In this document: positions 46,420-57,297 of the stretch, in pieces
How positions within the stretch are numbered: the first letter of the stretch is position 1
Layout: each line of letters starts with the position of its first letter
Source of the DNA: Octopus vulgaris
Lineage: Eukaryota
Length of the DNA stretch: 64,000 bases
Assembly: GCA_951406725.2 (NCBI GenBank)
Contig: OX597836.1
Coordinates: forward strand, 10,974,001 to 11,038,000
Reading direction: 5' to 3'
The notes under the pieces: generated by a model
What the model saw: only the letters and a program-made list of their open reading frames with translations
Databases searched by the model: none
Told to the model about the DNA's origin: nothing
Position numbers and translations under genes: made by a program

Positions 46420-46708
46420 ATAAATATTAGGGAATGAATCCAAAATTACAGGGAAAAATCAGATTTAGGGTTAAATCCAATTTTATAGTAAAATATTATA
46501 TAATATAATTCGAGGCAAAACCACTATTTTAAAACCAAACAAGGAAAGACTTAATCAATACATAAACTTTTAATATAAATTAAATAAACCGCCACTACAA
46601 ATGTTTCATGTCTGCTCCGACAATCTTCAGGTGGATTTTAAAATTTTATGTATTGATTAAGTCTCTCCTTGTTTGGTTTTAAAATAGTGGTTTTGTCTCG
46701 AATTATAT

Positions 46709-55419: not shown

Positions 55420-55562
55420 ATGTATGTTTGTATGTATGTATGTATGTATGTATGTATGTATGTATGTATGTATGTATGGATCAAGCTGTAACTCCCAATA
55501 AATGTGTCGAGTGCCCGTCTTTCGTTTTGTCTGCTAACAATATATATATATATATATATATT

Positions 55563-55959
55563 CTTTTCTTTTATTCTTTTACTTGTTTCAGTCATTTGAC
55601 TGCGGCCATGCTGGAGCACCGCCTTTAGCCGAGCAAATCGACCCCGCGACTTATTCTTTGTAAGCCCAGTACTTATTCTATCGGTCTCTTTTTGCCGAAC
55701 CGCTAAGTGACGGGGACATAAACACACCAGCATCGGTTGTCAAGCAATGCTAGGGGGACAAACACAGACATACACACACACATATATATATATATACGAC
55801 AGGCTTCTTTCAGTTTCCGTCTACCAAATCCACTCACAAGGCATTGGTCGGCCCGGAGCTATAGCAGAAGACACTTGCCCAAGATGCCACGCAGTGGGAC
55901 TGAACCCGGAACCATGTGGTTGGTTAGCAAGCTACTTACCACACAGCCACTCCTGCGCC
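55563..55959 (-). mobile_element. SINE family A, full length
   Basis: Reverse complement of 358-730. Confidence 0.88.
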
Positions 55960-56000
<41 letters not shown>

Positions 56001-56202
56001 TTATCATGAAAGCCTCAAAAAGTACGGAATATTGGCCCAATATATTCCAAGCATTGCAGGAGGCTAAAATTGAAAGAAGACAGCCAAACAGAACAATTGG
56101 ACAAAACAGTGAATTTGTGTGAGCGTATGTGTGTGTGTGCAAGATATATGTGTGTGTGTGTGTGAATGTTGACGAGAGAGAGAAAGTTGAGAGTCTGAAA
56201 TG

Positions 56203-56960
56203 TCATAATTTCTCTGCTGTAATGGGCAGTCTGTTGTTTAGTTCTTTTATGCCTTGCATTATACGTTTGAGATGACCAACTTTGTGGACACCAAGATCTT
56301 TGAGATCACTTCGTTCTAACGACAGTAATTCTGAACCTCGGATTTCATTTGTTACAAAATTCTGTTGGTACTCTCCAAGAGCCAGTGTCTCCAACCACAT
56401 TGCTACTTCAGCTGTACTCCAGTCTTCAATATTTTTCAGATCTGTTGAAGCTGCCTGAGAACTGTTCTTGTCTCGTTCTTTATCACGACCTTTGCCCTTC
56501 AATTTGCTGTAAACCTGCCGGAATTTGCCTCCCTTACGATGTTTTTGTTCTGATGTGGACATCTCTTCTTGACTCGTTTGTAAATTCACAAGTCCAGTGA
56601 CATCAACTATTTTCCTCATTTCAGCTTCTAATTTTGTTAGTAACCCACTTAATTGAGCATCACGATTGTAATATGTAGAAGGAGACTTTTCTCGTAGAAA
56701 AATGTGTGTTTCATTGTAAAGAATTTTCATGCTATTGACAAAATCGGAGAGTAAAGGTCGCAGTGAGGGTTCGGTCAGTGAAGAATTTGATTCAGCAAGT
56801 TTCCCTGAAAGACACAAAGCATCCAGGCGTTCTGATGCTTCAGAGGAATGGGAATAAAGATCTTGTTCAAGAGCACTGTGTTGATTAGCAGACGATTTCA
56901 CACAATCTATAAATTCAGATGACACTATAAAGCTGTGTAGAGCAGCTTCGTCTTCCAACA

Positions 56961-56964
<4 letters not shown>
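56203..56964 (-). CDS. C-terminal fragment of a type II diacylglycerol kinase (delta/eta-like): helical region plus SAM domain; intact intronless ORF, probably a captured or retroposed fragment
   Basis: WSTAEVAMWLETLALGEYQQNFVTNEIRGSELLSLERSDLKDLGVHKVGHLKRIMQGIKEL closely follows the DGKD/DGKH SAM domain. 253 codons without a stop; no kinase, PH or C1 domains. The ATG is formed at the (TA)n junction. Confidence 0.85.
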
Positions 56965-57016
<52 letters not shown>

Positions 57017-57026
57017 TATATAGAAG

Positions 57027-57075
57027 GAGCTTCTACCTAGTACTGTTTCATTCAAGAGAAATCTTCAGGAAGCTC
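57027..57075 (-). ncRNA. Type I hammerhead motif, inverted copy with shortened stem III
   Basis: GAGCTTC-CTGAAGA-TTTCTCTTGAAT-GAAA-C-AGTACTAG-G-TA-GAAGCTC. Predicted cut between 57034 and 57033. Confidence 0.6.
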
Positions 57076-57077
57076 CT

Positions 57078-57130
57078 GAGCTTCCTGAAGATTTCTCTTG
57101 AATGAAACAGTACTAGTCCTGTAGAAGCTC
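57078..57130 (+). ncRNA. Type I hammerhead ribozyme motif
   Basis: GAGCTTC-CTGAAGA-T-TTC-TCTT-GAA-T-GAAA-CAG-TACTAGTC-CTG-TA-GAAGCTC: 7-bp stem I, canonical core, near-palindromic stem III and GUA triplet (cut after 57123). Confidence 0.75.
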
Positions 57131-57210
57131 CTTCTATATAATAAATTAATTTTACTCTGCTATGTATTGAGTACCTTACTTACTGTGGTTAACCCCGTAT
57201 CAACCCGGGA

Positions 57211-57297
<87 letters not shown>

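Follow-up and report, generated by a model that had tools for sequence, protein, structure and literature searches.

A very young, spliced and poly(A)-less retrocopy of a DGK mRNA 3' end beside a Penelope-like fold-back hairpin in a TA tract of the Octopus vulgaris genome

EN+ Penelope-like elements are described as carrying a pseudo-LTR (pLTR), an inverted 5'-truncated copy, a tail at one end only and a minimal hammerhead (PMC8557442; PMC4209133), and the mechanism by which they insert is given as unresolved (PMC8557442). In Adineta vaga a Penelope element has trans-mobilised a host NRPS gene, which kept its introns and lies between two direct pLTRs with an 8-bp target-site duplication (TSD) and an empty allele (PMC3846280). 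Stringent LINEs mobilise SINEs through a shared 3' tail (PMC3747384; PMC5470649); tail slippage and stringent 3' recognition are both known for such LINEs (PMC3747384), and the specificity of the CR1 type is presented as restricting gene retrocopies (PMC5470649). LTR elements carry out retroposition by template switching at microhomologies, which yields chimeras (PMC5131818). Which elements make retrocopies outside mammals is presented as an open question (PMC5131818; PMC5470649).

Here we describe a locus in a window of 64,000 nt (G000:C23:10974001-11038000) of the 2.8-Gb genome of Octopus vulgaris, at which a retrocopy of the 3' end of a DGK mRNA adjoins the hairpin of a Penelope-like element, family A, in a TA tract. 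Like the EN+ elements as described, family A has a single ORF with RT and, at the C-terminus, a domain of GIY-YIG type, an inverted arm and a one-sided tail, as well as a hammerhead in its terminal repeat and (TA)n targets; unlike them, it has hundreds of copies in which there is nothing beyond the hammerhead, turned back on itself at stem I. The DGK piece resembles the Adineta vaga NRPS gene in adjoining pseudo-LTR arms, one of them palindromic (PMC3846280), but both it and a second retrocopy, of Ran, are fully spliced, and the DGK copy lies outside the arms, behind (AT)25. With stringent LINE-SINE pairs, as far as these are described, it has in common a 3' end of which ~45 nt are shared and predicted to fold alike, a variable tandem-repeat tail, the lack of poly(A) and the 5' truncation, whereas its passenger is a spliced protein-coding mRNA with a SINE in the 3'UTR. 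The tailless therian L1 retropseudogenes (PMC5322556) are similar in the lack of oligo(A), the internal end and the complementarity to the target; they differ from the DGK copy, which has no readable TSD, a TA target and an end at a SINE tail. A microhomology fusion of the kind described for LTR chimeras is absent from the DGK copy. The copy points either to LINE hitch-hiking via a 3'UTR SINE or to copying by a Penelope enzyme, both of them little described. In the literature covered, which included few subscription papers, neither a spliced retrocopy of Penelope origin nor an mRNA carried along by an embedded SINE tail is described, which is weak evidence that these routes are new.

The DGK copy, its parent gene and its ends

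The minus strand of the window contains an ORF of 253 codons (56203..56964), running from an ATG at 56964-56962 to a stop codon at 56205-56203. Pfam assigns aa 3-122 to DGKD_4H (~56958-56599) and aa 181-242 to SAM (~56424-56239), and the top PDB match is the SAM domain of human DGK delta (3bq7, E 1.2e-19). A reading made earlier from the sequence alone had described a hammerhead motif with its cut, a 69-nt leader, an ATG and 253 codons of a DGK delta/eta C-terminus, and both the coordinates and the Pfam and PDB matches agree with it. It had also placed the ATG at a microsatellite junction; the start codon indeed combines an AT from the target tract, here the (AT)25 linker at 56963..57012, with the G that ends a CTG (Leu) codon in the parent. 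As that reading had further stated, there is no poly(A) at the DGK copy and no splice acceptor upstream of the ORF, and none of the 71 filtered ORFs of the window and the 20 kb to its right contains another Pfam-detectable DGK exon.

The parent found by a DNA search of the genome is a type II DGK gene that lies not on C23 but on C19 (G000:C19:40863382-40872204; seven pieces in order). Six GT-AG introns of the parent, 0.47-3.4 kb long, are missing from the window copy, and the ORF corresponds to the spliced last seven exons of the gene, 5'-truncated within an exon. The proposal that a piece of host mRNA had entered a TA tract through an RNA intermediate is thereby borne out. The C19 exons upstream of the parental piece encode PH, C1, C1 and DAGK_cat (four matches among 71 filtered ORFs). 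That the window might hold the only copy, as the true terminal exon of a distant DGK gene, had been named as the case in which the proposal would fall; it is ruled out, the full intron-bearing gene being present on C19. A family A fold-back copy lies inside the parent gene, between its upstream exons (G000:C19:40833161).

The coding part of the copy differs from the parent by no substitution and by one 3-nt in-frame deletion near 56926, which the parent lacks in all four contig sets; with no coding substitution dN/dS is undefined, and the junctions of the retrocopy have stayed readable. In the UTR the copy shows two substitutions, one 1-nt indel and changes in microsatellite length relative to the assembled parent, differences which may be allelic.

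Downstream of the stop codon the copy continues through unique 3'UTR of the DGK mRNA (56001..56202, minus strand), a TA tract (55960..56000) and a SINE in sense orientation to the mRNA (55562..55959, minus strand). The 3' limit had been set after ~200 nt, at this TA tract, but comparison with the parent shows that the tract is no insertion boundary: both it and the SINE belong to the parental 3'UTR, and rare SINE variants at 55857, 55647 and 55574 are common to copy and parent (42 SINE copies compared). The cDNA extends from 56963 to 55562, starts mid-exon, ends with the SINE tail and is followed by (AT)11 of the target tract (55540..55561) without poly(A). Its last 5 nt (55566-55562) are one extra tail unit, which is missing from the assembled parent and could be allelic. 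Both ends lie in TA tracts, so that no target-site duplication is readable. The ORF is a very young, spliced, poly(A)-less retrocopy of the 3' end of a DGK mRNA. The junction and the youth of the copy account for its ATG and open frame, which we read as no sign of selection; the copy is probably silent and probably a neutral, rare allele. Since an ATG can come from a microsatellite junction, insertions of this kind are able to give rise from the outset to ORFs for truncated domains.

The tail at which the cDNA ends belongs to the only sense SINE within 6 kb past the stop codon, and 9 nt separate the end from the beginning of the first AATAAA. Before reaching it the cDNA had read through two further AT tracts, of which one has 15 units. 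The AATAAA, the first in the DGK 3'UTR, was made by a private change in the SINE tail at 55574 (parent G000:C19:40872836), seen in none of 21 other copies; the SINE may therefore supply a polyadenylation site to the DGK mRNA. SINE tails differ in repeat number (40 SINE ends compared). The last ~45 nt of the SINE align with the end of a LINE that has an RVT_1 ORF and show the same predicted fold, a pairing based on one pairwise tail alignment plus the RVT_1 match. The copies of this young LINE are near-identical, and by its motifs it may be CR1-like. Seven AT-like tracts score well within 3 kb of 3'UTR, and the 3' junction of the cDNA is one of them (score 15/16); it opens with ATAT, as family A uses at its own end.

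An assembly or library artefact that joined a cDNA into the chromosome at the TA tracts is very improbable. It would fit the position of both junctions in TA tracts, neither of which is spanned by any read or contig seen; the contigs of three sets (X2, X3, X4), which show the intron-containing parent only; and the fourth set, X1, which was guessed to be a DNA run and is without the two 5' junctions and the 3-nt deletion. In X1, however, one contig bridges the exon junction at 56677/56676 with 114 and 93 nt on the two sides, and two others reach across a junction but have just 27-30 nt to one side of it, which is below the 31-nt rule. The X1 depths of ~23, 45-68 and 80-91 fit one, two and three copies, the right flank is single-copy, and the copy differs from the assembled parent (3-nt deletion, two substitutions, several microsatellite indels), all of which argues against an artefact. 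The retrocopy looks like a rare, single-copy allele.

The family A hairpin and the Ran chimera

Beyond the (AT)25 linker, which joins the cDNA 5' end to the Penelope-like hairpin, lies a short, inverted arm (57013..57077, minus strand) and then a long arm with the 3' terminal repeat and tail of family A (57078..57215, plus strand); a TA target tract (57216..57297) leads on to single-copy flank. Regarding the 137 bp at 57078-57214, the genome holds 697 candidates, and all 40 of those scored were 100% identical. AT repeats follow in each of the 30 family A loci inspected, and an inverted hammerhead copy is found in eight, the window included. The exact fold-back junction pattern occurs 779 times (control pattern: 0); these exact solo fold-backs turn at the 5' edge of stem I (e.g., L065-L114), and their short arm ends ~20 nt past the predicted cleavage site. 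They offer a handle on the role of the hammerhead in Penelope insertion. The last base of the short arm before (AT)n is the same one in 72 of 103 ends, whatever adjoins, so that the (AT)25 linker needs no special event. Family A adds extra bases at about one fifth of its short-arm ends.

Family A has a pLTR with a hammerhead, an inverted 5' copy and a tail at one end only, and its longer copies carry a GIY-YIG-type domain and inverted arms. Two loci (L121, L123) show the same terminal repeat followed by open frames of 714 and 713 aa (~715 aa), in which RT-like and VY..YIG/CCHH motifs are discernible by eye; a CxC..C....C linker is seen as well, and since a Cys-rich linker between RT and EN is one criterion for the Neptune clade, family A is at most a candidate member of it. 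The ORF yielded no Pfam match to RVT_1 or GIY-YIG at E 0.01 and no PDB match, while among its Atlas neighbours (0.96-0.99) HTH_animal, GIY-YIG and RVT_1 are present on 18-100% of members. Judged by these sequence features, the hairpin is the stereotyped end of an EN+ Penelope-like family that is active. In family A a 3' region of ~3 kb, most of it simple repeats, separates the ORF from the terminal repeat (L047-L064).

A second spliced retrocopy is fused to a Penelope-like end. The Ran copy (G000:C9:113532464-113534040; L186 / L261) joins seven exons of its parent (G000:C25:25263596-25274055) and is ~2% diverged from it (21 mismatches among 905 aligned bases). It begins after (TA)25 and ends in (AT)n without poly(A), and its 3'UTR passes via a 6-bp microhomology into the last ~65 nt of another Penelope-like family, B. 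Family B targets TA, has 936 candidates, often occurs as inverted pairs and has a one-sided tail; one of its copies (L260) runs upstream into a GIY-YIG ORF (PF01541, E 2e-05), the single locus on which the link between ORF and end rests. The Ran copy was later split by an insert of ~0.6 kb with an endonuclease-like ORF lacking a Pfam match.

The Ran chimera probably arose by a template switch of the Penelope enzyme onto spliced mRNA, comparable to the U6/L1 chimeras; alternatively, a later deletion at a microhomology joined two neighbours. With only slightly less confidence we consider it likely that Penelope-like RTs make spliced, poly(A)-less retrocopies in TA microsatellites of this genome. 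If this is true, a Penelope route stands beside those of L1 and the LTR elements, with Ran as a template-switch product and DGK as one break whose two ends were filled from different RNAs. The Ran copy shares with LTR-mediated chimeras, as these are described (PMC5131818), the fusion of mRNA and element at a short microhomology and the lack of poly(A); it differs in that the element is a GIY-YIG Penelope-like family of which only the last ~65 nt are present. The chimera opens the Penelope route to simple genome-wide screening.

A census of retrocopies covered 12 Pfam families, with 2-30 top loci per family, and yielded three, namely Ran, a piece of an FGFR-like kinase and 14-3-3; no retrocopy of RPL3, RPSA or RPS3A was present among the top loci inspected. 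The intron-less kinase piece (L227, G000:C19:5541474-5542073) is decayed, with stop codons and a 5' end outside a TA tract, and its parent was not located; the 14-3-3 retrocopy (L267, G000:C1:170019073-170019409) is likewise decayed and matches the exons of a C6 gene at 85-91% identity. Intact single-exon CDSs were seen for 14-3-3, a ubiquitin-conjugating enzyme, a mitochondrial carrier, a proteasome subunit and a DEAD-box helicase (L263, L273, L287, L301, L313); they are possibly old retrogenes.

Origin of the DGK copy

The sequence-only reading had taken hairpin, spacer and ORF together as a gene-fragment capture module. A recurring module of this kind is not supported: at none of 96 other family A ends did Pfam find a host ORF on the short-arm side, where the matches were RT, GIY-YIG, zf-RVT and HTH_38 only. 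The ends screened came from 56 fold-back loci, namely the 50 that come first among the 779, which all lie on C1, and six taken from the 697 candidates (L044 among them is without the exact junction and L018 is the window), and from 40 of 57 further short-arm-type ends (including two pairs with duplicate flanks and two doubtful family A ends). The screen covered complexity-filtered ORFs of at least 75 or 70 aa within 1.3-1.5 kb, to which captures of UTR only are invisible. A weak zf-CCCH match was seen on the long-arm side at L065. The chance that a given TA tract has a fold-back neighbour is ~0.02-0.08% (779 fold-backs over an estimated 1.0-3.6 million tracts of at least 10 units, extrapolated from 184 kb). 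Coincidence may nevertheless account for the adjacency, because the locus was chosen for that neighbour and because six of 155 family A junction tracts adjoin the head or tail of the SINE/LINE group found here, so that both systems share tracts.

The explanation we favour, tentatively and at a little under an even chance, is that a LINE copied the DGK mRNA, which hitch-hiked via the SINE in its 3'UTR, and that a Penelope element inserted separately into the same TA tract. The observed part of this account comprises the splicing, the parent locus, both ends, the identity of the SINE with that of the parent, the tail shared by SINE and LINE and the stereotyped fold-back, and the course of events we infer around it would be as follows. 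The tail mutation would have given the SINE its AATAAA, upon which some DGK mRNAs would end just past the SINE and resemble SINE RNA. The reverse transcriptase of the LINE would then have attached to the shared tail and used a nick in the TA tract for priming, through an AT microhomology of 3-4 nt. After a single slip within the tail repeat it would have copied 1.4 kb and halted mid-exon, and the 5' end of the cDNA would have rejoined the TA tract through 1 nt. A family A copy would have entered the same tract in its usual manner, before or after the retrocopy. The LINE route is preferred to co-insertion with the Penelope element because the cDNA ends exactly at the SINE tail that a young LINE shares. 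The low chance of adjacency and the essentially undiverged state of both pieces speak against separate insertions. Against the LINE also count the place of the junction among seven good AT-like tracts, its opening ATAT, the bases that family A itself adds at short-arm ends and the extra tail unit, which could be allelic. A second SINE-tailed retrocopy was not found among the top loci of the 12 gene families, where one Penelope chimera (Ran) was seen, and the assembly holds no second copy of the right flank that would show an empty site or an allele with one piece alone.

A single Penelope event, the course implied where the sequence-only reading had the mRNA piece written by the machinery of the hairpin itself, is rather unlikely, although several features fit it. 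Family A would have nicked both strands, and its reverse transcriptase would have copied both element RNA and DGK mRNA: one 3' end primed on the element RNA and gave the long arm and then the fold-back, while its counterpart paired with the AU-rich stretch that follows the SINE in the DGK mRNA, and the products were joined via (AT)n. The two cDNAs do face each other like the two ends of one break, both are undiverged at a site where chance would rarely bring them together, the ATAT microhomology matches the element's own end, a small private deletion is found on each side of the central joint (one of 3 nt at 56926, one of 4 nt within the short arm), and the Ran chimera is a sign that spliced mRNA can serve as template for a Penelope enzyme of this genome. 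Unlike Ran, however, the DGK copy is not fused directly to the element but joined to it only via (AT)25, just as that arm meets any flank; the exact stop at the SINE tail and the extra tail unit also count against a single event, as does the lack of coding capture at the 96 other ends. A hybrid, in which one break in the TA tract was filled from the left by the LINE on DGK mRNA and from the right by Penelope on its own RNA, would explain together why the cDNA ends at a SINE tail, why the two pieces are oppositely oriented and equally young, and why they adjoin against the odds; it is improbable, since it calls for two different particles at one break, of which no second case was found and for which we know of no precedent. 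That the DGK copy itself was co-inserted with the Penelope arm, by whichever enzyme, is accordingly quite possible, though we lean against it. Slightly less probable even than the hybrid is internal priming by some other enzyme (another LINE, an earlier-acting Penelope enzyme or RNA-templated repair of the fragile TA tract) followed by Penelope insertion. Internal priming yields tail-less retrocopies with mammalian L1 (PMC5322556), and several LINE clades are described as recently active in an octopus genome (PMC13282606), but it gives no reason to expect the cDNA to end at the SINE tail, and longer pure TA tracts in the same UTR went unused.

The hammerhead motifs

Each arm of the hairpin carries a hammerhead motif. 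That of the long arm is intact and lies on the plus strand (core from 57085, predicted cut at 57123/57124), facing away from the ORF. That of the short arm, on the minus strand at 57075-57027, has an 8-bp stem I, the CUGAAGA and GAAA boxes and GUA, with a predicted cut at 57034/57033, from which 69 nt lead to the ATG. Its conserved core boxes and NUH site are present, but a deletion of 4 nt, which are kept in all 184 other arms counted, reduces stem III from 4 to 2 bp. The motif has no Rfam match at the gathering score, and folded alone it does not adopt a hammerhead shape (z -0.98). The long hairpin, by comparison, is predicted to fold at -102.9 kcal/mol (z -19), well outside what chance would give, and a minus-strand transcript starting upstream would pair the motif with its own complement in a duplex of ~65 bp. 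Three stable stems were accordingly not obtained in transcript context, stem III having 2 bp and the motif being sequestered. The hammerhead pair noted from the sequence alone therefore stands as part of a Penelope-like element, while its minus-strand member is damaged.

These properties bear on the suggestion that a transcript trimmed at 57033 encodes a kinase-less SAM protein that co-polymerises with DGK, a reading that fits any origin of the copy. The in-frame ATG is intact and the SAM domain is close to that of human DGK delta. The suggestion is nonetheless highly improbable: the motif is damaged in stem III and buried in the duplex, the ORF is intact only through youth, no promoter is known, and the product would be uncapped, as hammerhead cleavage leaves a 5'-OH end. 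The DGK copy was seen in one of four contig sets, in which contigs show presence and not absence. One minimal metazoan Penelope hammerhead is described as giving no detectable cleavage in vitro (PMC4209133). Two more hammerhead-like core patterns lie on the minus strand at window positions 46603 and 63935, outside family A.
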